From the NCBI GenBank assembly GCA_002099625.1, contig GCA_002099625.1_4857.1: a DNA stretch of 64,000 nt; one strand, given 5' to 3'. Each line of letters opens with the position of its first letter. The stretch's first letter is position 1. The notes below the pieces were generated by a model. The model was not told the DNA's origin. It did no database searches and saw only the letters and a program-made list of their open reading frames with translations. The DNA comes from Escherichia coli. Lineage in GTDB: Bacteria; Pseudomonadota; Gammaproteobacteria; Enterobacterales; Enterobacteriaceae. The translations under genes were made by a program, and so were the position numbers. Shown in pieces: positions 24,822-56,985 of the stretch.

Positions 24822-24866
24822 CTGTAAAAAAGGCAATACCCTCTTACCCGAAGGTAAGAGGGGGTA
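24822..24866 (-). terminator. intrinsic terminator
   Basis: Stem accctcttacc/ggtaagagggggt with cgaagg loop, T-run on minus strand. Confidence 0.75.
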
Positions 24867-38755: not shown

Positions 38756-41500
38756 ATGGAAGATATTAGTAAATTAACGGGCGACCCCGCGGTAGCTGCC
38801 ATACTGCGTAAGTCCACGAGCCCGTCGGCTCAGCAGCAACGCGGTAAGCGTGAAGATGGCGGCGTTACACCAACCCGTACAGAACTCACGGGCATTGCGA
38901 GTAGCCGCATTCGCACCGTTAAAAATGCCGAACGTATCTTTGATGCGCTCCCTGAGTTAGAGGTCATTGTTACCATCGCGACCTCCTCACTCCTGTCCAC
39001 AAAAGATTTGATTAACACCACGCTGATTTACGACAACGTGGCTGATATCCCGATCGACCTGCGTCAACAGTTGTTGGAACCTGTGCGTGAATTCCATGAC
39101 CACACGCGCCAGTTACCCAACAAACTGTATCAGTGGATTTACGATGCACTGAAATCCAAAGGCGCGAGCCCGGTGTTGCTGATTTCAGATACCGGATTCG
39201 ATGAACTCTTCGGCTTAAAGCCGTCTGTTGCAACCGAATCGTTGCGCCGTAGCCAATCTGACTTCTTTGAACGTCAGTTGGGTATCCTGGGCAAGATTGG
39301 CGGTGAAAACAAACCGAAGGTTGGTGTAGAAAGTATTCTGGGCCGTGCACGTGGCGCTGACAAGCCCACCAAGCCACAAACCATTAAACTTAACTTTGCA
39401 GCAGCCCCTAACAGTCCGTTTAAAGCAGACGGTATGTTAGCTTCCCTGGATATCGTTATCACCGACAACCCGCGTATTACCCTGCTACCAGAGGCTTATC
39501 GCCGTGTGGCACAGGAGAATGCTCGCACCGGCCTGTTCGGTCAGTTAGAGCAGTACGCATATGAACAACCTTCTACGCCGACAGGTGCGTCAGAGTATAA
39601 CGCTGACCAGTTCACAGACAGTGAACAAGAGAAGGCAAAACTCGGTTTAATCAACATCGGCGACCTCAACGAAGCGTACCAGAAAACGCCTGAGCAAAAG
39701 CTTTACGGCGAAGTACCGAAGATGAGTTTCTCCGATGCCAACAAAATCGAATACACGGAACGATTACTGCCAGCAGAGTCCACACTCCCGCTCGTTATCG
39801 GCGACGATGTTCGTAACCCCATAGGTTATCTGGCCATCGTTGACGAAATGGGTAACTTCATTAACTCGCGCTCCACACTTTACGGTGATGCGAACTTCAT
39901 GAACTACCTGAACAACGACGGTATGGTGGATTCAACAATCAACCGTGCGAATCTGGGGATGGGCAACACAACCCGAATCACACCAGACATTGCTAACCGC
40001 TTAACAGCGCGTTATGGTGAAATTGCTGAAGACCAGCTAACCAAAGCTCTGGGTGAGGCGTTGGGTGGTGCTGAGATTAGCATGACAGTAACCGAAACGT
40101 TCAGCCGTATCATGCTGGCGCGCCATCTGGCAAAACGTCATACGCAGGTTATCTATATTCCTGCGGAAAACCTTTGCTATTTTGCCACGGACTTTGATGA
40201 AGATGGTATCGGTGTATCTATTACCGAACGCTCGTTCGTTATCTCTACTGTCCGTATGGCGCTGTTGTTCGCTACCATGAACTCTGCGGTGTTGAACTCT
40301 GCACGTCACATGCAGTACGACATTGAGTTGGCACCAGATGACATGAACGGTCAGAAAACAATTGACCAGCTGAAAACAGACATCATGAACTCCTATAACC
40401 GTCGTCAACCGATGTGGGGGGACATGAACGACACCTGGGCAATGACGACAAACGCAGGTATTGCGTTTAACGTTATTGGTAACGACTACTACGGTAGTAC
40501 CAAAGTGTCTGTGTCGGACACTACGCCGGATTATAAATACCCGGATAAGGATTTCGACGAAGGTCTGTTACGACGTACTTGTCACATCGCAGGTGTTGAC
40601 CCTGACCTGGTAATGACCCCCGAGAACATCGAGTTTGCTTCACAGATCTTCTCTAAATCGTTACTGGTCACCCAGCAGGTTGTTAAGAAGCAAGAGATTC
40701 TCTCTAAGCCACTGACACGTTACGTAGTTAATGGGATGTTGGCCTCTCCGTCGTTGCAATCAGCGATGATTAAAATCATTGCAGAGTACATCAATGCTAA
40801 CGGCAATGGGATGACTACTGACCAGATTACGAAAAAGGTCTCTGAGTATCTGGCTGCGTTTATCAACGGTATGAAAGTAACCTTACCACCGCCAGACACC
40901 TCTGCAGCAGCTTCGCAGATGGAGCTGTTCGATAAACGTACGGAGTTCTTTGAGAAGCTGGCTGATCTGGTTGTAACGGATGACATTGCTGCGCAACTCC
41001 AGCAAGAAGGTATCTCGATGGACCCGAACGATCTGAAGACGATGATCAAATCCTTCTATACGCGCAACTGGCTGCGTAAACAAGGTATTGAAACCGACTT
41101 CTTCGATCTGGTTTACGACGATGATTCTCGTCAGGACAACATCACCATGATGACTGATGAAGCGATGGCTGCTTCGAAAACGCTGATTCAATTGGCGAAA
41201 CGTTTCACCGGGCGACTGGAAACGTTAGCGAAGAATGCCGACCTTGATCCTAACGATGCTTCCGGCGGATTCGGTGGTGGTTTTGATGCGGGCGGTGACA
41301 CCGGCGGTGGTGATGGGGATCTCGGCGGTGGGGGTGACGATGATTTAGACCTCGATCTCGATACGGATAACGGCACCGGTGGTGATAGTACAGAGGAAAC
41401 TACTGAGTCGACCGAAACCACGGAAACAACTACCGAGGGAACGGAAGGCACAGAAGGCGGTGAAGGAACTACCGACGACAACCCAGACAACGTCCTCTAA
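38756..41500 (+). CDS. large virion-associated protein, portal-like candidate
   Basis: Continuous 914-aa plus-strand ORF while minus frames are fragmented; C-terminal Gly/Asp/Thr/Glu low-complexity tail; portal assignment is speculative. Confidence 0.55.
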   Translation: MEDISKLTGDPAVAAILRKSTSPSAQQQRGKREDGGVTPTRTELTGIASSRIRTVKNAERIFDALPELEVIVTIATSSLLSTKDLINTTLIYDNVADIPIDLRQQLLEPVREFHDHTRQLPNKLYQWIYDALKSKGASPVLLISDTGFDELFGLKPSVATESLRRSQSDFFERQLGILGKIGGENKPKVGVESILGRARGADKPTKPQTIKLNFAAAPNSPFKADGMLASLDIVITDNPRITLLPEAYRRVAQENARTGLFGQLEQYAYEQPSTPTGASEYNADQFTDSEQEKAKLGLINIGDLNEAYQKTPEQKLYGEVPKMSFSDANKIEYTERLLPAESTLPLVIGDDVRNPIGYLAIVDEMGNFINSRSTLYGDANFMNYLNNDGMVDSTINRANLGMGNTTRITPDIANRLTARYGEIAEDQLTKALGEALGGAEISMTVTETFSRIMLARHLAKRHTQVIYIPAENLCYFATDFDEDGIGVSITERSFVISTVRMALLFATMNSAVLNSARHMQYDIELAPDDMNGQKTIDQLKTDIMNSYNRRQPMWGDMNDTWAMTTNAGIAFNVIGNDYYGSTKVSVSDTTPDYKYPDKDFDEGLLRRTCHIAGVDPDLVMTPENIEFASQIFSKSLLVTQQVVKKQEILSKPLTRYVVNGMLASPSLQSAMIKIIAEYINANGNGMTTDQITKKVSEYLAAFINGMKVTLPPPDTSAAASQMELFDKRTEFFEKLADLVVTDDIAAQLQQEGISMDPNDLKTMIKSFYTRNWLRKQGIETDFFDLVYDDDSRQDNITMMTDEAMAASKTLIQLAKRFTGRLETLAKNADLDPNDASGGFGGGFDAGGDTGGGDGDLGGGGDDDLDLDLDTDNGTGGDSTEETTESTETTETTTEGTEGTEGGEGTTDDNPDNVL

Positions 41501-41565
41501 ACAAAAAAGAAAAAGAAATAAGGTTTACCTCTCCCTTCGGGGAGAGGTACCTTTTCTTTTTTAAT
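41500..41565. terminator. bidirectional intrinsic terminator
   Basis: Stem tacctctccc/gggagaggta with ttcg loop, flanked by A-run upstream and T-run downstream; sits between convergent genes. Confidence 0.75.
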
Positions 41566-47599: not shown

Positions 47600-47642
47600 T
47601 TAGAAAAAAAGAAAAAGCTTACTCCCCGAAGGGAGTAAGCTA
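47600..47642 (-). terminator. intrinsic terminator
   Basis: Stem gcttactccc/gggagtaagc with cgaa loop; T-run on minus strand. Confidence 0.75.
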
Positions 47643-47671
47643 ATCTTAGGCAACGTAATCCTTACGGATTA

Positions 47672-49969
47672 TTAGCCGCCAGCGCCTTCACCGCCAGTAC
47701 CTGGCTGGGTACCGCCGCCAACATCACCAGCATTACCACCGTCAGTACCGCCGGTACCGTTGGAAGTAGTAGTGACGTTGAACGCCAGTTTCTCTTCCAC
47801 GAACTTGGTGATACCTTTAATCCAGATCAGACCAGTGATCGGGCAGTGGCAGATGTGCGCGTTACGAGGCTGTACTGCCAGCTCTTTGCTGGTAGCGCCG
47901 TTACGCTGGATGTTGATGTTGGTTACCATGATCGGAGACCAGAAGTGGTTACCCCAGTTCAGAACACAGTAAGAACCATCATCAGCGGTTGGAACTTTCA
48001 GAACCCACTGCAGGCGGCGAGTCCAGCTGCCGTCAGCTTCGTTCTTCACACGCCAGCGGTCATCGTTGGTGGTGATAACTTCGTACTCGTAGCGATCGCC
48101 CAGCAGACGCTGGTCACCCTGAACCAGCAGCAGCATTGCAGCAGTCGGTTCGTCAGTTGCGATAACAACTTTCGGCAGTGCGTTCGGGTCCGCAGTCAGC
48201 AGGCGCAGAGCCGGCATGAAGCGAGAGTCCTGGATAGCACGAGTTACCTGGTCACCGATACGCTGTACCAGACCCTGACGGGCGTTGATGAGCGCATCTT
48301 TGGTATCCAGAGACTGGATCACTTTGTCCACTTCGTAGTCGCTTTCGCTGTACCACGGAGCAACCCAGTGACGGCCCAGGCCGCGGATAGCAGGTTTGTC
48401 CCACGGAGTGATCATGGACGCAGCTGCGTTCTTAACCGCTTCGGTGTAAGACAGAGTCTGAGTGATAGCCAGCATTTCGTTACGGATGTTAACCGCAGAA
48501 ACGAGGTCGTCCAGACGTTCGGTGTCGTCGTATTCAACGCCAACCGGAGATTTGGTCATGATCGGAGAACCGTACTGCAGTTTGTAGTTCTCTTGTTCCC
48601 AAATCGGGTCGAGCAGAAGGCCCTGGGTTCTCCGGTTCTCGTTGGTACGAGTACCGTCGAAGCGCCAGCCCAGCAGCTCCAGTTTCAGGTTGTCGATGAT
48701 CACTTTACCGGTGCCGCTTTCGATATCAACAGCAGTACCAGTTGCGTCGTACAGACCTTCGATTTCCAGAGACGGTGCAGTCACGTCAACACGACCAGAG
48801 AACTGACCGTTGGTGAACAGAGACATGCTGATGTTCATGGAATAACGAATGGTGTAATCGTTCTGTGCCAGAGCGGCCAGTGCCGGGATTTCAGCACCTT
48901 TCCAGTCCAGAGACTTGGCGTTCAGGGAGAACACGGTGCGACGGAACTGCAGGACCAGCTCACGGCCATCACCTTCAGGAGGACGCTGGAAAGTAGCGAA
49001 CTGCATGTCGCGTACGTTCAGTTTGATCAGCGCACCATCTTTCGCTTCTTCGGTCGGCTTACGCACAGACAGCAGCAGGCTACCCAGCGCCGCACCCGGT
49101 GCGATTTCGTCGGTTTCATCGTAACCTTCCTGCACGATACCCGGATGGGCAGACAGCTGGAACAGGTTCAGACGACGTTCAGAGAAGCTCAGGTAGTTGG
49201 TCGGATACGCCGGCACACGACCCAGCTGAACGTTTTCGTTTTCGATGATGTCTTCGGATACGAAGAACTTCGCGTTCTCGCCGGTTTCCATCACGTAAGG
49301 AACGATACGGATAGCATCGTCCTGCAGGACTTTGTGGTTAGACAGCGCGTTATGCAGCGGCTGACGGTTGTCTTCAACCACGTCTTTGGTCAGCAGGGCG
49401 TTCAGGATACCACGAGTTACAGTAGTAACTTTGGTACGAACGGTGATGCCGACGTCGTTGGTGTCCACAGTGATGGTCGGGAACAGGGTTTCTGCAAACT
49501 TGGATTGAGTTTCCAGAGCACGCACGTTCAGCGTCCAGGTCAGACCCAGGTTTTTGTCCAGGTCTTTGTTGGTGTAGTATTCGGTTGCGACCAGCGGAGT
49601 TTTACCGTAGTCAGCAGCCAGAGATGCTGCACCGGAAATAGCGATCGGCATGTAGCTGGCATATTCCGGCTTCGCGCTCTCAGCAGCAACACGGGTCATG
49701 AAGTCATCTTCGTGACCGGCAGCAGCCAGAATCATCGCAGAAGCAACCTGAGCAGCGTGGCTCATGGTTTTGCCAGGGTTTACAGCTTCGTAGTGCTGCT
49801 GAGCAGTGTCACGCAGGTTGGTGAAGCCGGCAGCATTTTTACGTACAGATTCGCCAACGGCTACGGTTTGCCATACGTCATTAGCGGAAGAGCCTGCCTT
49901 GGCAGCAGCGACCAGAGCATTGCCCTGCTGAACCAGCTGGTCCAGACTAGCGATACGGGTATCTTTCAT
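47672..49969 (-). CDS. abundant large structural protein, major capsid or sheath candidate
   Basis: 765-aa ORF with strongly biased codon usage, strong downstream terminator, Gly-rich C-terminal tail; the antisense 715-aa plus ORF has R/V/F/Q-rich junk-like composition. Confidence 0.55.
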   Translation of the reverse strand: MKDTRIASLDQLVQQGNALVAAAKAGSSANDVWQTVAVGESVRKNAAGFTNLRDTAQQHYEAVNPGKTMSHAAQVASAMILAAAGHEDDFMTRVAAESAKPEYASYMPIAISGAASLAADYGKTPLVATEYYTNKDLDKNLGLTWTLNVRALETQSKFAETLFPTITVDTNDVGITVRTKVTTVTRGILNALLTKDVVEDNRQPLHNALSNHKVLQDDAIRIVPYVMETGENAKFFVSEDIIENENVQLGRVPAYPTNYLSFSERRLNLFQLSAHPGIVQEGYDETDEIAPGAALGSLLLSVRKPTEEAKDGALIKLNVRDMQFATFQRPPEGDGRELVLQFRRTVFSLNAKSLDWKGAEIPALAALAQNDYTIRYSMNISMSLFTNGQFSGRVDVTAPSLEIEGLYDATGTAVDIESGTGKVIIDNLKLELLGWRFDGTRTNENRRTQGLLLDPIWEQENYKLQYGSPIMTKSPVGVEYDDTERLDDLVSAVNIRNEMLAITQTLSYTEAVKNAAASMITPWDKPAIRGLGRHWVAPWYSESDYEVDKVIQSLDTKDALINARQGLVQRIGDQVTRAIQDSRFMPALRLLTADPNALPKVVIATDEPTAAMLLLVQGDQRLLGDRYEYEVITTNDDRWRVKNEADGSWTRRLQWVLKVPTADDGSYCVLNWGNHFWSPIMVTNINIQRNGATSKELAVQPRNAHICHCPITGLIWIKGITKFVEEKLAFNVTTTSNGTGGTDGGNAGDVGGGTQPGTGGEGAGG

Positions 49970-49981
49970 TTCAAGTTTACC

Positions 49982-50506
49982 TTATTTAGATAAATGACAT
50001 GCGTACAACTGCGTCAGCACTTCGTGCGCAGCAAACTGCGTCGACGTACTGAACGTATCATCCACGACACGAGTCTTGGGACGCATATATTTAAAAAGTT
50101 CTGCGCAGAACATCTTTTTCGCAGCGTGGTCTTCACTTAAAGAAAAACCCGGTCCGGATTTAGCTTCTGCAAAAGACGCCACAACAACATCGCCACGTTG
50201 TGAGAACACCCAACGTAAACGACCGTCGAATGATTCCCCATATAAATCAGCAAGGGTTTCATTCGTACCTTTCTCAACCAGGTTTAAGACCTGGTCATAA
50301 TAAAGAGTCGGAAGTGCAGGTGGTGCCATAATCGATTTATAAATCGAAATAGGGTCACTCACTGGCAGTATGATGGAACTAAAGCCCGACGAGCAGTCAT
50401 ATAACCAGTTAAAGAAGCTTGCTTGGAGTTCCTCCAACTTTTTAACGCCAGCCCCTTTATCTATGTTAGATTGAACTTCCCACGGTGGACTAAAACGAAT
50501 TTGCAT
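49982..50506 (-). CDS. hypothetical protein
   Basis: Start at ATG 50506 (MQIRFSPPW), 15 nt from the divergent plus-strand start. Confidence 0.5.
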   Translation of the reverse strand: MQIRFSPPWEVQSNIDKGAGVKKLEELQASFFNWLYDCSSGFSSIILPVSDPISIYKSIMAPPALPTLYYDQVLNLVEKGTNETLADLYGESFDGRLRWVFSQRGDVVVASFAEAKSGPGFSLSEDHAAKKMFCAELFKYMRPKTRVVDDTFSTSTQFAAHEVLTQLYACHLSK

Positions 50507-50520
50507 TTTAAGGATGCTCC

Positions 50521-52083
50521 ATGAATAGTAAAATGATGTTGATAACCGCCTTAGCCGCACTGTATACAGAATCTATGCTGACGGACCCTAGCAAGGATCA
50601 TGATGTCATAAGAAAAGTTCTGATGCAGATCAAGCTTCCGGAATATGCGGAAGATGGCGAAGAGCGCTTTGCACTCATCGAGATCAAGGACATTATCACA
50701 TCTATCATAGACGGCGGCATGGAATACGACCACGCGAGCGTTATGAAGCGCTTGAAGCTGGCCACCACTCAAGTACGTCCTCTATACGATACGATTACCA
50801 AATTCCTCGAAGACGATTTGCCCGAGGAAGAAGACAAACGTACCGAGCATCTTAATCGACAACTGTCTCAATATTATTTCCAATTACGTCAATGTTTACA
50901 GAGCGTCGAACTCAAAACAAAAATGGGTCGCGCGTTCGGAGCATTGAATGGAACTGAGACACGTGTTGATCTGAACACCGCAGTGCTCGAACTCAAAGAG
51001 GCGCTATCTACGTTCGGTGAACGCTCTCATAATAAGATTCCATCACTGGTTGGTGAGCTGGTTACGGATAATCGTGCTCCGTTTGTTAAAGTGTTCGACT
51101 CGATTAACAAGAAAGCAGCAGGTAATGGTTTGCAGACGGGCTGGAAAGCCATTAACCAAATGCTCGGTTGTAACAAAGGGATTACCGAAGAACTGTGGCT
51201 AATGCCGGCGTTACCTTTTAACTGTAAGTCTTTGTTCAGTCTCTTACTGAGCTTGTCGATTCCTATCTTCAACACGCCTGAGAAAGTAATGGCGGATGTG
51301 AAGGGCACACTGCAACCAATTATTCTTGACTTGAGTTTAGAAAACGAACTCGACGTTAACTTAGCTTACGGCTATCAAGCACTGTACGGTCATTTTGAAG
51401 GACAAGTTCCACAGATGACCATTGCCCAAGATGCGACCGCTGAAGAGAAGTTAGCACACACAACAGCAATGTCTGATTACCTCTGTGGTAAGATTCGCGC
51501 AAACGGTTGGGACTACGTTTTCCAAAAGCACACCAACTCCGATTTTAAAGTGCACTACATCAACGACCTTATTCTCGACTTACGTCGTCGCGGTTATCAT
51601 GTTGTTGGCATTCGCGCAGACTACTTAGGCACAATCAGCAAAGCAGGACACGGCAACGGTATTGCCGGGAGTGATATCAAAGAAATTTATCGTATTGCTC
51701 GTAACATCCAAGTGGTACGCAACCGTGGGTTCTTAATTGCCCCACACCAGATTTCCCCAGAAGGTAAGCGCTTAAAAGCGTTAGACCCGGTAGGTTTCTG
51801 TAAGAACTTACCTGGTCGTGGTCTTTACGATAGTTGTTCGAGCCTTGATAACGAGGCCGATGGTGAAATGTATTTTAACAAGCGTGTGGTCAACGGCCAT
51901 AGCTTCTTAGAAGTTCAACGCGGTAAGCACCGCACCATTATCGATACTAAAGAATCTTATCACTACACAGTGATACCTTTCCAGGATGTTGGCATCCTGC
52001 CTTGGGATTGTGATAAAGAAGAAACCGTAACAGCGTCGTCTATCAACTTCTTCACCGGTGGAATGGGTGATGATTTGTTCTAA
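50521..52083 (+). CDS. hypothetical protein, plus-strand
   Basis: Continuous 520-aa plus ORF with SD AAGGA; minus frames fragmented. Confidence 0.55.
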   Translation: MNSKMMLITALAALYTESMLTDPSKDHDVIRKVLMQIKLPEYAEDGEERFALIEIKDIITSIIDGGMEYDHASVMKRLKLATTQVRPLYDTITKFLEDDLPEEEDKRTEHLNRQLSQYYFQLRQCLQSVELKTKMGRAFGALNGTETRVDLNTAVLELKEALSTFGERSHNKIPSLVGELVTDNRAPFVKVFDSINKKAAGNGLQTGWKAINQMLGCNKGITEELWLMPALPFNCKSLFSLLLSLSIPIFNTPEKVMADVKGTLQPIILDLSLENELDVNLAYGYQALYGHFEGQVPQMTIAQDATAEEKLAHTTAMSDYLCGKIRANGWDYVFQKHTNSDFKVHYINDLILDLRRRGYHVVGIRADYLGTISKAGHGNGIAGSDIKEIYRIARNIQVVRNRGFLIAPHQISPEGKRLKALDPVGFCKNLPGRGLYDSCSSLDNEADGEMYFNKRVVNGHSFLEVQRGKHRTIIDTKESYHYTVIPFQDVGILPWDCDKEETVTASSINFFTGGMGDDLF

Positions 52084-52216
52084 CGAACACTGGGGAGCTT
52101 AGGCTCCCCTACGGGCAGTTTATGCGTCCTGCCAAGATCAAAAAAAAATACGACGAACTATTTATATGCATGGAATTACCCGAGTGTTCCAGCACTCGGG
52201 TAAGAGTTATTTCATG

Positions 52217-52363
52217 TTAACTTTTGTTTAGTAGTATTTCACCTCCTAAACCCTTGATACGACGAACAGTGTTCTGCTTGGGCGCAGTCAACTGTTGTAC
52301 ACGTTGGTTGAATTGGGTTTGCTTAACGTAATAGTTAAGTATTTGCGAACGTAGTTGTTCCAT
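52217..52363 (-). CDS. micro-protein, paralog A (48 aa)
   Basis: ATG 52363 with SD AAGGAGG; ends IKGLGGEILLNKS; paralog of 52476..52622. Confidence 0.5.
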   Translation of the reverse strand: MEQLRSQILNYYVKQTQFNQRVQQLTAPKQNTVRRIKGLGGEILLNKS

Positions 52364-52379
52364 GTAGTGCCTCCTTAGG

Positions 52380-52400
52380 CAGGTTGTTAATATATCGCTG
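52380..52400 (-). promoter_or_regulatory. class A-like promoter variant
   Basis: Minus-strand CAGCGATATATTAACAACCTG shares the ATATATTA core; low confidence. Confidence 0.3.
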
Positions 52401-52439
52401 CGCTGTGGTGGTACACAATGCACCGATATACTGTCACGG

Positions 52440-52468
52440 GAGTTAAAAGGGGTGCTCGAACACCCCTG
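52440..52468 (-). terminator. intrinsic terminator
   Basis: Stem aggggtg/cacccct; T-run on minus strand; after stop of micro-ORF B. Confidence 0.6.
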
Positions 52469-52475
52469 GTTAGTG

Positions 52476-52622
52476 TTACTTCTTATTGAAGATGATGTCA
52501 CCTCCTAGTCCTTTAATGGTACGGGTGGAAGTCTGCGTTGGGCGGCTAACCTCTTGCAGACGTTGTTGAAAAGCGACTTGTTTCAGCTGTTGCTGACGCA
52601 GTTGTTGCATAAAGGTATTCAT
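52476..52622 (-). CDS. micro-protein, paralog B (48 aa)
   Basis: ATG 52622 with SD AGAGG; ends IKGLGGDIIFNKK; below the 60-aa cutoff of the ORF track. Confidence 0.5.
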   Translation of the reverse strand: MNTFMQQLRQQQLKQVAFQQRLQEVSRPTQTSTRTIKGLGGDIIFNKK

Positions 52623-52648
52623 GTTAACCTCTAAGTGGATGTGAATAA

Positions 52649-52690
52649 GCTCTCTCCTTCGGGAGAGAGCGCCTTTTATTTTCTTTTCGG
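52649..52690 (+). terminator. hairpin with plus-strand T-run
   Basis: Stem gctctctcc/ggagagagc with ttcg loop followed by ttttattttcttttc on plus strand; also lies in the 5' UTR of micro-ORF B. Confidence 0.4.
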
Positions 52691-52731
52691 AAAATAAATA
52701 TAAAACCCTCTTACCCGAAGGTAAGAGGGGT
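52690..52731 (-). terminator. intrinsic terminator
   Basis: Stem ccctcttac/gtaagaggg with ccgaagg loop; A-run on plus strand. Confidence 0.7.
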
Positions 52732-52735
52732 ACTA

Positions 52736-53596
52736 CTACGGTTTATAATCAACTTCGTTGATCTTGCCGCAAGCCGGACAAGCAATGTTCATTGTCTGCG
52801 AAGTATAGCGATGGGTTCTCGGTACTGTAGCGACATGGTTGCGGTTACAGCCGGAACACGTCCAGCCAACCACTGGTGCCTTCGATTGTTTCTGGGCAGG
52901 TGTGTCTTCTTTTAACAATGCGACTACCGCGTGAAATTTACGAAGCTCTGCGTTAACATGCGCTTCCCAGTCGGCGTCCAAACGCGCCGTGAACCAACGT
53001 TGAATCTTCTGGCCAAGTCCGTCTTGATTTTCTTCTTCATGGGACATCACAAACTTGAGATTTGCACGACCCCATTGCACGACGTTCTCTACTTTAATCC
53101 CGTCTACGGTGTCGCTGATTGGCGTATAGTTAAAAGTTGGATAGGTGAGATAACAAGCTTCAGCTGTTGCAAAGACAGTATTGCCTTCAAACAGTGCCAT
53201 GGCCTCATCGCCCTTAGCATCCTTCTGTGCGGCTTCCAATCGTGGGCAATGGAAACCTTCAAGTTGCTGGATTTTGGTCGTTAGCACATTGATACCCTGT
53301 AGCACGGCAATGCGCTTTTTGCTGTCTGTGATCGTCGCCATTACCTTGCACAACGCGCGCGAGATAGCGCTATACATTGACGTTTTGCGGTTTTCATCGA
53401 GGAAACGCTCTTGCTGCTCCAGGTCGTAAGAAGACAGGCCGTAGCTCTGCCCTTCGACCAACACGACATAAGTACGACGTTTGTCGCGGTCCAGCTGGAC
53501 AATGGCCGCATCGGTTAACGGATCGCTAGCCAATACTTCGTGGTTGGGAGGTAGGGGGAAATCCGAACTTTTGATAAAATCAGTAATGCTGTACAT
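52736..53596 (-). CDS. hypothetical protein with C-terminal zinc ribbon
   Basis: 286-aa ORF; C-terminal CSGCN...CPACGK. Confidence 0.55.
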   Translation of the reverse strand: MYSITDFIKSSDFPLPPNHEVLASDPLTDAAIVQLDRDKRRTYVVLVEGQSYGLSSYDLEQQERFLDENRKTSMYSAISRALCKVMATITDSKKRIAVLQGINVLTTKIQQLEGFHCPRLEAAQKDAKGDEAMALFEGNTVFATAEACYLTYPTFNYTPISDTVDGIKVENVVQWGRANLKFVMSHEEENQDGLGQKIQRWFTARLDADWEAHVNAELRKFHAVVALLKEDTPAQKQSKAPVVGWTCSGCNRNHVATVPRTHRYTSQTMNIACPACGKINEVDYKP

Positions 53597-53599
53597 TTT

Positions 53600-54016
53600 T
53601 TAGTCCTTAAGAGAGTTAATAAAGTCATCTAAACTAATATCACGGAATGGGAAGTAAACACCTTCAAGCGGAATCGTGTAGTGTTCACTAATGGCACGTT
53701 GCCAATCCAGAACAGTTGCAGGGTAGTTCACAACCTCAAAGTTAGGATGCGTGATTGGCGGAATTGCGTTGTAAACATAGCCGTTAATATTTTTCGATGG
53801 GAACGCTGCACGGAACTTCGGCTCCATGTAGAACATTTCTTCTTTTACTTCCTGGCCTTCCCAGAAACGATAGCCACCCTTACCGTCAGGAATATAAATC
53901 GCCTTGTCACGGGGTATAGGGGAATCCTTGGATAGCGGAACAAATCGCCCGTACTGGTCAAGAACCATCCAGTCAGTGTCATTCTTTAAATACTTTTGGA
54001 GCTTCTCATTAATCAT
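53600..54016 (-). CDS. hypothetical protein
   Basis: Start probably ATG 54016 or 54022; the ORF track N-terminal extension runs through the terminator. Confidence 0.5.
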   Translation of the reverse strand: MINEKLQKYLKNDTDWMVLDQYGRFVPLSKDSPIPRDKAIYIPDGKGGYRFWEGQEVKEEMFYMEPKFRAAFPSKNINGYVYNAIPPITHPNFEVVNYPATVLDWQRAISEHYTIPLEGVYFPFRDISLDDFINSLKD

Positions 54017-54032
54017 TTTCATGTTCCTTAGG

Positions 54033-54062
54033 CAAAAAATAATACCACCCGTAGGTGGTATT
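54033..54062 (-). terminator. intrinsic terminator
   Basis: Stem accacc/ggtggt with cgta loop; A-run on plus strand. Confidence 0.6.
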
Positions 54063-54074
54063 AAATTATCTATA

Positions 54075-54263
54075 CTACTTCTTCCCGAGTTCCCCACGGA
54101 ACTTCGCCAGCTCTTCTTTCCAGTCCGGCTTCGGTAGTGCGCTTTTCGGCCCCACGATAAACGTACGTTCTGAGGTTTGCGGATTCACCTCTACTGTTTC
54201 GTTATCTTCCACTTCGCGAAGCACGATTCCGTTTTTACCATCGTAATTAACTAAAACGCCCAT
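54075..54263 (-). CDS. small hypothetical protein
   Basis: 62-aa ORF. Confidence 0.45.
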   Translation of the reverse strand: MGVLVNYDGKNGIVLREVEDNETVEVNPQTSERTFIVGPKSALPKPDWKEELAKFRGELGKK

Positions 54264-54445
54264 TAGTAAATCTCCTGCTGCATTGGAAACACATTACCTG
54301 TCGGTGAGACGAGTAAGACTTGCGCGGTAACGTGAACAATTTCTTCTTCGTCCTGATGACGAACACCGTTAGTGAGATTATCCCACTCACGTTTAACACG
54401 AGGGTGAGATAAGAACTCGGCAAACTGCGTATCAGAAAAGTCCAT
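54263..54445 (-). CDS. small hypothetical protein
   Basis: Start ATG 54445 overlaps stop of upstream micro-ORF (TAATG coupling). Confidence 0.45.
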   Translation of the reverse strand: MDFSDTQFAEFLSHPRVKREWDNLTNGVRHQDEEEIVHVTAQVLLVSPTGNVFPMQQEIY

Positions 54446-54588
54446 TAGCCGCGACCTGTGCACATGGCAACAGAGTTACCGTTATCGATGCATTTGTTGT
54501 AATCTTGAGTTACAGTGATAGACAGTACCGCGAAAGCAACAACAGCAACGATTGCGAAGATGGCACGTTTATGGTTACGAGTTAACAT
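54445..54588 (-). CDS. small membrane protein (47 aa)
   Basis: MLTRNHKRAIFAIVAVVAFAVLSITV...; single TM; first ORF after class A promoter; not in ORF track (under 60 aa). Confidence 0.45.
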   Translation of the reverse strand: MLTRNHKRAIFAIVAVVAFAVLSITVTQDYNKCIDNGNSVAMCTGRG

Positions 54589-54640
54589 GGTAATACTCCT
54601 TTAGCTTAATAGTCGATTGAGTTGATAGATTGTCTTCTAT

Positions 54641-54664
54641 CACCTAGGTAATATATATCTGAAA
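54641..54664 (-). promoter_or_regulatory. class A phage promoter-like motif
   Basis: Minus-strand TTTCAGATATATATTACCTAGGTG followed by hairpin GATAG/CTATC and leader. Confidence 0.6.
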
Positions 54665-54689
54665 TTATTTTTATTCAGAGTACACCCTC

Positions 54690-54795
54690 TATAACGCTCT
54701 CAAACGCGTTTTGAGAGCTTTTATCACTTTAGAGGGTCGTTCTACCGTTAGAGTGGCTTTAGAAGGTTGTGTGTGCGTTTAGAGGGCTAAAATAA
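54690..54795. repeat. intergenic palindrome plus four TTAGARKG direct repeats
   Basis: Inverted repeat gctctcaaa-cgcgt-tttgagagc at 54696..54718; repeats tttagaggg, gttagagtg, tttagaagg and tttagaggg follow over about 60 bp. Confidence 0.5.
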
Positions 54796-54824
54796 AGAGA
54801 CCTGGTCTCACAAGGAGACCAGGC
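54786..54824 (-). terminator. intrinsic terminator
   Basis: Stem cctggtctc/gagaccagg; A-run on plus strand upstream. Confidence 0.65.
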
Positions 54825-54830
54825 ACACTT

Positions 54831-55628
54831 TTACATCAAATCCAGGCTCTGAGAGACCGCAACTTCCGGTTCACTGATGCCGCTGGTCACTGACAATGTA
54901 AAGCGACGATCGTTAATCACTTCAACTGCCTCGCTCGCACGCAGTGAATACTTATCGGCGATTGGCAGTACACTGTTATCGTTCTGTGGCGGCAGAATCT
55001 GTGCCGGGAACGGAATGTACGAGTTGAAAGTGATATACGGACCGACTTGCATCATCGGGAACACTTCGTTCACGTTATTCGACATCCCTTCATCCGAAGA
55101 GATAACGGAGTGACGCAGACAGGCACGCAAGCCAACGGTGTACTCCGGATCGCGCGATTCGCCGATCAGTGCGAAACGGAACACGTTGAAATCGTAGTCG
55201 TCTGCAGCGAAGTGTTCTGGCAGGATACGCTGTACGTATTCAGGGTAAGTGGTCACGTCACCCGGAATAACATTCACGGCGAGTTTCTGTGCCAGGAAAT
55301 ACGCATTCGCGAAACCGTACTGCCCCGCCAGCGCAGCTGATATCGGTGCAGTGGTTACGCAGTGCAGGAACAAGTGATAACCCAGCCCGCCTTTATCTTC
55401 GATTGCCAGGTCCTTCTTACTCTGCACACCGTCAGCAGTATAAATAACTGCCACTGTTTTATCCAACGTTGATGCCATGACAAAATCCAACTGCACCTCA
55501 CCGCTTTGCGGCAGTACCTTAACCAGGCGATCCCAGAGCTTGGTCGGTTTGGTGAAGTTAGCGGCTTCGTACGCATCAATGTCGAGAACAGTTTGGCCGG
55601 TCATGCGAAAGGTGTGAATCGCTTTCAT
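54831..55628 (-). CDS. hypothetical protein, possible virion protein
   Basis: 265-aa ORF. Confidence 0.55.
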   Translation of the reverse strand: MKAIHTFRMTGQTVLDIDAYEAANFTKPTKLWDRLVKVLPQSGEVQLDFVMASTLDKTVAVIYTADGVQSKKDLAIEDKGGLGYHLFLHCVTTAPISAALAGQYGFANAYFLAQKLAVNVIPGDVTTYPEYVQRILPEHFAADDYDFNVFRFALIGESRDPEYTVGLRACLRHSVISSDEGMSNNVNEVFPMMQVGPYITFNSYIPFPAQILPPQNDNSVLPIADKYSLRASEAVEVINDRRFTLSVTSGISEPEVAVSQSLDLM

Positions 55629-55671
55629 TGCAATATTTTCCTTAAGGTTACTTACGGGTCATACTAGATGA

Positions 55672-56985
55672 CTAAGCTGTAAATTTTTCATCTTTGAGCC
55701 AAAGACTCAGTTGTGATTGGGTGTTATAGCGTCCTGATGCCATCGTTTGACCGTCGACAGCAGACTGGAACACTTCACCCACCAACGTGCCGTAGCGGGT
55801 ATAGACCCCATACTCGTTGGCAAAAACGTATTTTACTGGCATACCGGGATATAGGATGCCGTGCGTTGATCGGTTCCAGGTTGTTTGCACAATCGTACCC
55901 AGACCCATCTCCAGTTTAGACCGCTGTGGTTTATCGGTATCGCTAAAGTGCTTATCAGGATCGATTGGTGCGTTAACCACACCACCTGGATACGCAGCAG
56001 GGTCGGCCTGTGCCACAAATTTATCAGGTGTGGTCATACTGATGTCGCCAGGCGTAAATGAACTACTACGCCCATCCAACACACGTACAGACCCTACCCG
56101 GTAACCCGTACCCTGGTTAAGCGCGGCCTGGTCACGGTATTCCAAACTACTGGTGTCGCCGCCACAAATCAGATAGATAACATTACCCGCGATATCGGTG
56201 GTGCGGTCAATGTGAGCAGCCTGTTCACGAGGCAAGTTATAAATGACCAGTTTAGGCTTCGTTGTGTTATTAAACTTCAACGAGTCCCAAGGTCGATACA
56301 GATACCATCGTTGTAGGTATTGGAAGACCCCAATACCTTTGCTGTAAACACCGTAATGGTTCTGCAGATAATCAAACACGCTTAAGAAGTCTTCGGAGTC
56401 TGGTATAACGATGTCCCGATATGCCTGCTGTTCTTCTTCATCGTATTCAATCCCTTTCAACTGCCCCTCTGCAGCCACCCCTTCCGGCAACGTATCCGCC
56501 AATATCGAGCGAGCCACTGTTAACCCATCTGTTTCGTGGTAGATGCCGCCCACTTGACGATTACGCAGGAACCACATCGACTCATCCATCAGCTCCAATG
56601 TTACCAATGCGATAGATTTCTCATCAGACTGACTCAAGAACATCGTCGGTGATTCCGCGTTGTGGTCGCGGTTATTTATCACGATGCCGCGGTAGTTAAA
56701 GACCCCTGCGATTTTCTGTCCACGACGCAGTAACAGCTTTACCTTCAAATCCCCTTCTGCGGACGATGTGATCATTCGCATGTGGCTGTAGGGGATAGCC
56801 AAGGTGAGATGTGTCAATAAACAGATATCACGCGTAAAGTGACCGGTGTGAATGATAGACAGCATCTTCAACACCGTCACTGGGGCACCGTGCACCGTGA
56901 GGAATATCCCGTAGTCGATAGCCGGTAACCCCCGAGCATTAGCGATGTGACCGTTCGCCATCTGTTGTAACCGACCAAACGACAT
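55672..56985 (-). CDS. hypothetical protein, possible virion protein
   Basis: 437-aa ORF. Confidence 0.55.
   Translation of the reverse strand: MSFGRLQQMANGHIANARGLPAIDYGIFLTVHGAPVTVLKMLSIIHTGHFTRDICLLTHLTLAIPYSHMRMITSSAEGDLKVKLLLRRGQKIAGVFNYRGIVINNRDHNAESPTMFLSQSDEKSIALVTLELMDESMWFLRNRQVGGIYHETDGLTVARSILADTLPEGVAAEGQLKGIEYDEEEQQAYRDIVIPDSEDFLSVFDYLQNHYGVYSKGIGVFQYLQRWYLYRPWDSLKFNNTTKPKLVIYNLPREQAAHIDRTTDIAGNVIYLICGGDTSSLEYRDQAALNQGTGYRVGSVRVLDGRSSSFTPGDISMTTPDKFVAQADPAAYPGGVVNAPIDPDKHFSDTDKPQRSKLEMGLGTIVQTTWNRSTHGILYPGMPVKYVFANEYGVYTRYGTLVGEVFQSAVDGQTMASGRYNTQSQLSLWLKDEKFTA

Follow-up and report, generated by a model that had tools for sequence, protein, structure and literature searches.

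The OOP RNA of phage lambda is antisense to cII, and in bacteria (Listeria) the excludon represents a long antisense type of untranslated region (UTR). In type I toxin-antitoxin systems, a small open reading frame (ORF) is accompanied by an overlapping antisense RNA, and the toxin is small, hydrophobic, and membrane-active. The Seoulviruses are phiKZ-related jumbo phages with their own multisubunit RNA polymerases. Phage terminators have been mapped by Oxford Nanopore Technologies (ONT)-cappable-seq in phiKZ (PMC10914365) and 201phi2-1 (PMC11512511). In six phages, 9% of the mapped terminators are antisense to genes, and four cis-antisense RNAs have been mapped in phiKZ and eight in PAK_P3 (PMC10914365). 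The late promoters of the phiKZ non-virion RNA polymerase (nvRNAP) have the core TATG, with G as +1, and the middle promoters carry an additional AAanTTACc near -24 (PMC4666361, PMC12809450). The transcription organisation of the enterobacterial nucleus-forming jumbo phages, including Seoulvirus, is almost unknown. The locus considered here lies in a 64,000-nucleotide stretch of DNA from an Escherichia coli assembly (GCA_002099625.1; the whole stretch is called the window), which is an SPN3US-like jumbo phage (Seoulvirus) with 98–99% identity to Salmonella phage SPN3US and its relatives. It is the region downstream of the replicative helicase gene, where two micro-ORFs are encoded on the opposite strand.

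The best reading of sequence and conservation, to which a probability of roughly 0.55 can be given, is that a plus-strand RNA ending at a hairpin, H4, covers the micro-ORFs in antisense. The locus would then be a convergent-overlap junction in which minus-strand micro-ORFs are covered by a plus-strand transcription unit. The parts of this unit would be a candidate promoter core (P2, with its start at G 52168), an extended 5' stem-loop (H2), and H4, which lies past the start codon of the distal micro-ORF. About 25 related loci were compared, from the genera Seoulvirus, Machinavirus, Wellingtonvirus, and Erskinevirus and from a metagenomic group (L018-L020). The features of the locus are as follows:

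50521..52083, plus strand: gene of the DnaB-like replicative helicase, 520 aa (SPN3US ACQ60_gp193; PF20307, E=1e-124; phrog_3213)
52092..52109, plus strand: hairpin H1, GGGGAGC-TTAG-GCTCCCC, a 7-bp stem without a T-run, 8 nt past the helicase stop
52118..52129, plus strand: motif P1, GTTTATGCGTCC, with TATG at 52121-52124, about 10 nt after H1
52140..52148, no strand assigned: A9 run (T9 on the minus strand), kept in all relatives, 17-28 nt upstream of the P2 start
52165..52168, plus strand: P2, TATG, candidate nvRNAP promoter core, predicted start G 52168
52168..52217, plus strand: extended hairpin H2, with an inner stem of 11-12 bp (52176-52203) and an outer helix (52168-52176 with 52209-52217)
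52217..52363, minus strand: micro-ORF 2, 48 aa, MEQLRSQ...KGLGGEILLNKS, phrog_18219, annotated in SPN3US
52391..52430, minus strand: imperfect 17-bp inverted repeat in the micro-ORF 2 leader, holding the early-promoter-like CAGCGATATATTAAC (a weak match to the early motif)
52448..52467, minus strand: hairpin H3, 3' of micro-ORF 1, with a short T3 tail (perfect-hairpin census, fold)
52476..52622, minus strand: micro-ORF 1, 48 aa, MNTFMQQ...KGLGGDIIFNKK, phrog_18219, annotated in SPN3US
52649..52687, plus strand: hairpin H4, GCTCTCTCC-TTCG-GGAGAGAGC (52649..52670) followed by GCCTTTTATTTTCTTTT, with the canonical form of an intrinsic terminator
52690..52729, minus strand: hairpin H5, a 10-bp stem with a UUCG loop (52729-52706) and the tail TTTTATATTTATTTTC, terminator of the upstream 286-aa gene
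52736..53596, minus strand: the 286-aa gene (phrog_10180), last gene of the minus-strand block that ends at H5

The helicase gene, H1, the two micro-ORFs, and H4 had been listed in an earlier note on this DNA, and all of them lie where it had placed them. Terminators were sought by a scan of 49500-55000 against shuffles, by a census of perfect hairpins in the window, and by reading all intergenic regions. The hairpins exceed chance, since the scan found 18 terminator-like sites against 5.1 +/- 2.5 in the shuffles, and the pairing of H1, H2, and H4 is preserved in relatives via compensatory changes. The typical terminator of the window has a 9-11 bp stem, a UUCG tetraloop, and a TTTATTTT-type tail and is near the phiKZ pattern of a hairpin plus TTAT (PMC10914365). 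According to the SPN3US annotation mapped onto the window, the minus strand carries all but two genes. One of the two is a virion protein gene (38756-41500, plus strand); the other is the helicase gene, which stands as a lone plus-strand gene opposing a long array of minus-strand genes, the capsid gene among them. At least ten intergenic UUCG hairpins lie on the minus strand, every one 3' of a minus-strand gene. On the plus strand, the window holds two UUCG hairpins with a T-run, namely, H4 and the hairpin at 41526-41549, which lies 26 nt past the stop of the other plus-strand gene.

The 9-bp stem of H4 includes six GC pairs, and the folded segment has a predicted energy of -20.6 kcal/mol (z = -3.1; 1 of 200 shuffles was as stable). 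On the plus strand, the tail GCCTTTTATTTTCTTTT is T-rich and contains TTAT, and the minus side reads TTATTCACATCC. The tail sequence TTTTATTTTC is identical to canonical minus-strand terminator tails, and its reverse complement matches only terminator tails elsewhere in the window. Because of the orientation census of UUCG loops and a tail that matches only terminator tails, H4 is, in its sequence, the canonical terminator form of this phage's type and faces the helicase; RNA 3' ends are predicted near 52680-52690. In Seoulvirus, Machinavirus, and Wellingtonvirus, H4 is represented by five distinct, fully paired stems, with UUCG on the plus strand in four of the five lineages. The tails of H4 and H5 form a palindrome, TTTATTTTC-N6-GAAAATAAA (52675-52698), so that two terminators stand face to face, and this opposed pair is conserved in the same three genera wherever the micro-ORF occurs.

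H4 starts 566 nt downstream of the helicase stop, past two opposite-strand genes, and the window contains no canonical plus-strand terminator between that stop and H4. The earlier note had described H1 as lacking a T-run, which agrees with the two T found in the next 10 nt; the folded 42-nt segment has an energy of -16.5 kcal/mol (z = -2.1). Its claim that H4 is the first good plus-strand terminator can be kept in part. It had overlooked H2, the top-scored site, although the H2 tail is T-poor in relatives and only H4 is canonical. H3 and H5 were likewise absent from the note. Across about 24 relatives, H1 appears with six different stems, each perfectly paired, its loops are UNCG or GNRA on the plus strand in most of them, and in one relative, a G.U pair is feasible on the plus strand alone. 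On this comparative evidence, H1 is a real plus-strand RNA hairpin. A positional homologue with a UUCG loop lies 3' of the phiKZ helicase gene PHIKZ118, where four co-directional small genes begin 21 nt downstream, so an H1-type hairpin does not mark where that transcription unit ends in phiKZ.

The junction can be compared with five control convergent junctions, one in the window (gp185/gp186) and four in the first 50 kb of SPN3US. All five have a single hairpin between the stop codons, and in four of them both tails are T-rich; T counts in the tails range over 4-8 in 10, and every junction has at least one tail that reaches 7 or more. The helicase junction deviates from this pattern. H2, located between the two stop codons, has tails with 5 and 4 T in 10 that are T-poor in most relatives, so that it does not have the form of a bidirectional terminator, and the canonical plus-strand terminator lies beyond the opposite-strand genes.

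No hairpin of the region is more stable than H2, which has a 12-pair stem, a hexaloop, and -25.6 kcal/mol on the plus strand (z = -7.1). Together with its tail GAGTTATTTC, which contains TTAT, it is the highest-ranked plus-strand terminator-like site in the mechanical scan. The tail is not T-rich in EC001, pEa_SNUABM_29, pEa_SNUABM_11, or L026, and folding predicts that in the window it pairs into the outer helix. In this strain, H2 may halt part of the plus-strand transcription. Relatives differ by compensatory changes in 7 of the 10 pairs of the inner stem. The outer helix includes G.U pairs that can form on the plus strand alone, and it begins at the predicted +1 of P2; an RNA that starts from the P2 G folds into the extended H2 with -25.2 kcal/mol on the plus strand vs. 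-18.8 on the minus strand in the window, and the plus-strand form is more stable in most lineages. The outer helix was judged by single-sequence folds, which are suggestive only, as it could not be captured by the MAFFT/RNAalifold alignment.

The TATG of P2 is invariant in about ten lineages, which are all of the phages with GLGG-type micro-ORFs, whereas its flanks vary. With the predicted start, it would occupy -3..+1 on the non-template strand, as a promoter core of this kind should. The distance from P2 to H2 is 8-12 nt, or 26-30 nt in L018-L020. In the window as a whole, TATG is the most strand-asymmetric tetramer, with 193 occurrences on the coding (minus) strand; the antisense strand has 57, against about 202 expected under a first-order model. 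In the 7.7 kb of intergenic sequence, there are 28 on the coding strand vs. 6 on the plus strand, and P1 and P2 are two of the six. The scarcity of TATG on the antisense strand looks like avoidance of the promoter core of the phage polymerase.

Wherever the micro-ORF occurs, the same layout is found. The helicase stop is followed by H1, TTATG[CT]GTCC (P1), a run of 8-11 A, TATG (P2), and the hexaloop hairpin H2; then come the micro-ORF or micro-ORFs, a plus-facing canonical terminator, and a minus-facing terminator or one bidirectional hairpin. In L018-L020, which have two to three micro-ORFs, canonical terminators are missing in both directions as far as a bidirectional one that lies 850-1030 nt from the helicase stop. 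In the Wellingtonviruses L026 and pEa_SNUABM_11, one to three canonical terminators in the helicase sense separate the helicase stop from the A-run/P2, and P2, H2, and the plus-strand terminator past the micro-ORF are still retained. If H4 only ended helicase transcripts, it would be redundant in these phages; this speaks for an antisense unit of its own, reaching from P2 to H4.

These comparisons bear on where such an RNA would come from. According to the earlier note, read-through from the helicase gene would be antisense to both micro-ORFs. In Seoulviruses, this could indeed feed the antisense RNA, because there is no canonical plus-strand terminator between the helicase stop and P2, and polymerases passing the T-less H1 would add to the same RNA. 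Read-through is probably not the main or only source, given the invariant P2 and the Wellingtonvirus terminators; a dedicated TATG promoter is the likelier source, with read-through as an additional one in Seoulviruses.

The predicted RNA, 52168-52687, geometrically spans both ORFs, their Shine-Dalgarno sequences, and their start codons, with full complementarity. From the sequence, it is reasonable to predict plus-strand RNA across both micro-ORFs together with their ribosome-binding sites and start codons. The analysis shows the sequence elements with their strand-specific features, conservation, and covariation; from these, we infer the existence of the RNAs, their start sites, and any regulation. 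Micro-ORF expression would be expected to drop whenever plus-strand transcription is active, either through polymerase collision or through sense-antisense pairing that hides both ribosome-binding sites; that the antisense RNA would regulate the micro-ORFs at all is put forward purely by inference. Were it confirmed, the group would have a conserved cis-antisense unit aimed at a conserved micro-protein gene that is always beside the replicative helicase. It would be unsurprising in kind, since earlier mapping in phiKZ and other phages has revealed antisense RNAs as well as antisense-facing terminators. The terminator type (UUCG plus TTTATTTT), three promoter classes, and the avoidance of antisense TATG offer testable handles in the genetically tractable SPN3US.

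Several points weigh against an antisense unit of this form. In phiKZ, the four-base TATG is necessary but not sufficient (PMC4666361). From A9-TAC to the P2 TATG there are 13 nt, 2 nt closer than the 15 nt of the middle-type candidates in the window, and the spacing from the A-run/TAC to P2 differs between genera, being exactly 15 nt in pEa_SNUABM_11. The outer helix of H2 is lost or outcompeted when more flank is folded in pEa6, pEa11, and SPAsTU. In the window, H2 is strong and has a TTAT-containing tail, so it could end plus-strand transcripts before the micro-ORFs, and the serial terminators of the Wellingtonviruses could be mere fail-safes. A minus-strand promoter of a recognised class for the micro-ORFs was not found in the intergenic regions or in the motif scan. 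No transcriptome of an SPN3US-like phage, and no data on transcription start and termination sites (TSS/TTS) or transcript ends, were found in the literature, and the paper on SPN3US essential genes does not mention the genes of the micro-ORF locus.

In comparison with phiKZ-like terminators, H4 and H5 share a GC-rich stem-loop and a TTAT-containing, T-rich tail, and they lie between convergent genes. They differ in that the helicase-sense terminator stands past one to three opposite-strand genes rather than between stops. The UUCG loops and TTTATTTT tails also differ from the phiKZ TTATKYYGT, and the SPN3US terminators are predicted ones. With the phiKZ nvRNAP promoters, the locus shares the TATG of P1 and P2, the A-run and TAC before P2, promoter classes like those of phiKZ, and avoidance of antisense TATG; the upstream-element spacing of P2 is off by 2 nt, and its start is a predicted one.

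The predicted RNA resembles the cis-antisense RNAs of phages in being a short, dedicated opposite-strand transcript with its own terminator and full complementarity to its target. In this case, however, whole genes and both ribosome-binding sites would be covered, the length tracks the copy number of the target, and the RNA may merge with the 3' UTR of the neighbouring gene. If the helicase is read through, one mRNA would encode a protein and silence the opposite-strand neighbours via an antisense 3' UTR, as in an excludon. The differences are that the polymerases are the multisubunit ones of a phage, that the targets are micro-ORFs, and that the Wellingtonvirus terminators between the gene and the antisense part argue against a pure excludon; such continuity is possible in Seoulvirus, with no canonical plus-strand terminator before H4, but is contradicted in Wellingtonvirus. 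A small ORF with a predicted overlapping antisense RNA in a compact cassette of variable copy number is also reminiscent of type I toxin-antitoxin systems. Unlike their toxins, the micro-protein is hydrophilic, with a predicted helix and disordered linker and without any hydrophobic or membrane segment.

Among the other explanations, the one that survives best is that the antisense RNA is made but neutral. Here, insertion or duplication would have placed the micro-ORF cassette between the hairpin on the helicase side and an ancestral bidirectional terminator, like that of Erskinevirus, so that the plus-strand terminator was left on the far side. In that genus, H1, TATGCGTCC, and A9 are directly followed by one bidirectional terminator. 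The number of micro-ORFs also differs between relatives (0-3), and H4 and H5 are 73% inverted copies of each other. Against such a by-product, the layout persists in at least three genera with diverged sequences, the UUCG orientation of H4 stays fixed while other loops flip between near-identical strains, and the TATG of P2 is under apparent purifying selection. We regard this origin as doubtful, although it deserves to be taken seriously.

It is rather unlikely that the hairpins are insulators only. In that case, H1 (with TTTATG) and/or H2 would stop plus-strand transcription, H4 would be the last fail-safe shielding the minus-strand operon, and any antisense RNA would be negligible and functionless. 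H1 is conserved as a plus-strand RNA hairpin directly past the helicase stop, and the TTTATG[CT]GT after it resembles the phiKZ tail YTTATKYYGT (PMC10914365). It nevertheless has no T-run (2 T in 10), stands 9-10 nt from TTTAT, and has a phiKZ homologue that sits before co-directional genes. H2 is the most stable hairpin and the top-scored plus-strand terminator-like site, but its tail is T-poor in most relatives and pairs into a helix in the window. Terminators in series in the Wellingtonviruses, and a plus-facing terminator-like hairpin at 54696-54718 where no plus-strand gene exists, would also suit insulation. The invariant TATG before H2 and the one-hairpin design of the five other convergent junctions would be left unexplained.

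Finally, H4 could belong to the minus strand and serve the mRNA of micro-ORF 1 as a hairpin in its 5' leader or as an element associated with its promoter, with the A-rich stretch upstream as a promoter element, but this is very improbable: the start codon of micro-ORF 1 does lie only 26 nt from H4, on its downstream side in the minus sense, no other recognised minus-strand micro-ORF promoter was found, and in several genera H4 is followed on the minus strand by a short TCACA, yet the UUCG is on the plus strand in four of five lineages while all minus-strand terminators have it on the minus strand, the tail is the canonical one with a reverse complement seen only in terminator tails of the window, and none of the window's three recognisable promoter types is present there.

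The micro-proteins have 47-49 aa and the C-terminal motif KGLGG[DE]I[IL]FNK. In Seoulvirus, Machinavirus, and Wellingtonvirus, their genes are found in conserved synteny and run convergently towards the helicase gene. The two micro-ORFs of the window are paralogous, with about 42% identity; one is like the single copy of EC001 and the other like the SPAsTU copy. There is no copy in Erskinevirus, one in EC001, SPAsTU, pEa29, and many SPN3US-like strains, two in SPN3US, and two to three diverged copies in L018-L020. Third codon positions are the most variable, and the length and C-terminal motif are kept across genera. A search of 5.8 billion proteins gave 59 relatives, of which all named ones are hypothetical proteins; they occur only in jumbo-phage genomes or in large phage-sized contigs, many of about 220-250 kb. 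Pfam has no family for the micro-protein, and PHROGs has only phrog_18219, of unknown function. The AlphaFold2 model has a helix (residues 2-26), a disordered linker, and a weak beta-hairpin; its confidence is low for the tail. The protein is rich in Q, K, and R.

A further-reaching possibility, which we consider unlikely, is that the micro-ORF, its 3' hexaloop hairpin, P2, and H4 form a self-contained sense/antisense cassette that is conserved beside the replicative helicase gene across a clade of nucleus-forming jumbo phages and is present in 0-3 copies. The antisense RNA made by the phage polymerase would then be a timer that shuts off the helicase-linked micro-protein, for example, if the micro-protein mRNA were retained or destroyed as a duplex before its translation in the cytoplasm.

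On the other strand, the census shows no canonical minus-strand terminator between H5 and the one past the capsid gene (47616-52706). For this reason, minus-strand transcripts of the micro-ORFs may run antisense through the helicase gene and into the capsid operon.

P1 is kept in nearly all relatives, including those without micro-ORFs, and can be read in more than one way: as an nvRNAP TATG promoter core, or else as a hairpin-dependent pause site or weak terminator tail, as its TTTATG[CT]GT resembles the phiKZ terminator tail YTTATKYYGT (PMC10914365; a phiKZ example was compared). The likeness to the phiKZ p119L promoter ends at TATG, and P1-like repeats are not enriched in the scan (21 matches vs. 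18.9 expected). A plus-strand micro-ORF starting from the P1 ATG (MRP...KKK) was considered and rejected; the A-run length of 8-11 shifts the frame, and only the first residues are conserved. The module of H1, about 10 nt, TTATG[CT]GTCC, and A8-11 (52092-52151 in the window) follows the helicase stop even in phages without micro-ORFs (L015, L016, L023, L024, L028), in which the A9 run is the T-tract of a minus-strand terminator. If TATG is a start in these phages, a plus-strand RNA of about 70-80 nt would end at the bidirectional terminator. As a weaker corollary of the cassette idea, the H1-TATGCGTCC-A9 module might encode a small plus-strand RNA even in them. In phiKZ, a stretch of about 690 nt downstream of PHIKZ117.3 (L031 4976-5660), past the small genes that follow the helicase homologue, is rich in hairpins and without annotated genes.

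The loops of several hairpins are inverted between near-identical strains. The H1 loop is TTAG here and CTAA in EC001; in SPLA3, the loops of H2 (TTCCAG here) and H3 (CTCGAA here) read CTGGAA and TTCGAG, respectively. Neither H4 nor H5 had its UUCG loop inverted in any of the strains compared (L002, L003). The 24-nt terminator hairpin CCCTCTTACCCGAAGGTAAGAGGG is found twice in the window (24839-24862 and 52706-52729) and matches unrelated positions in Machina-like phages. A search of Rfam (E up to 1, 49000-56000) returned nothing but two weak mir-4679 matches, on both strands at 52650-52727, which are an artefact of the imperfect H4/H5 palindrome. There is no tRNA or tmRNA in the window. A sigma-70 promoter scan gave 4 sites vs. 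6.8 expected, which is uninformative because the phage family transcribes with its own polymerases.

The minus-strand promoter classes of the window resemble those of phiKZ and comprise the early-type TTTCAGATATATATTACCTAGGTGA, TTAC-N15-T[AG]TG, and plain TATG. For the helicase, a middle-type promoter candidate lies at 50439..50465 on the plus strand (TTTTTAAC-N15-TATG, predicted start G 50465); its TTAC/TAAC-N15-T[AG]TG layout is common to several minus-strand intergenic candidates. The sole close copy of P1 is TATATGCGTCC, which shares the 9-mer TATGCGTCC and lies on the minus strand at 50079-50089, within a 174-aa gene and about 115 nt upstream of the major capsid gene. Its TATG is retained in Asesino and pEa_SNUABM_6 despite different codons. 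As a lead rather than a result, it is a candidate late promoter of the capsid gene. The early-type TTTCAGATATATATTACCTAGGTGA occurs six times, on the minus strand only. The extended AT-rich motif TTTCAGATA[TG]AT[AG]TTA... has six minus-strand copies upstream of genes, at 2826, 7702, 18201, 24777, 54661, and 63166, and probably represents the class of early promoters used by the virion polymerase. The plus-facing terminator-like hairpin at 54696-54718, with a 9-bp stem and the tail TTTTATCACT, lies immediately upstream (in the minus sense) of the early-type promoter near 54661 and may stop antisense transcripts.

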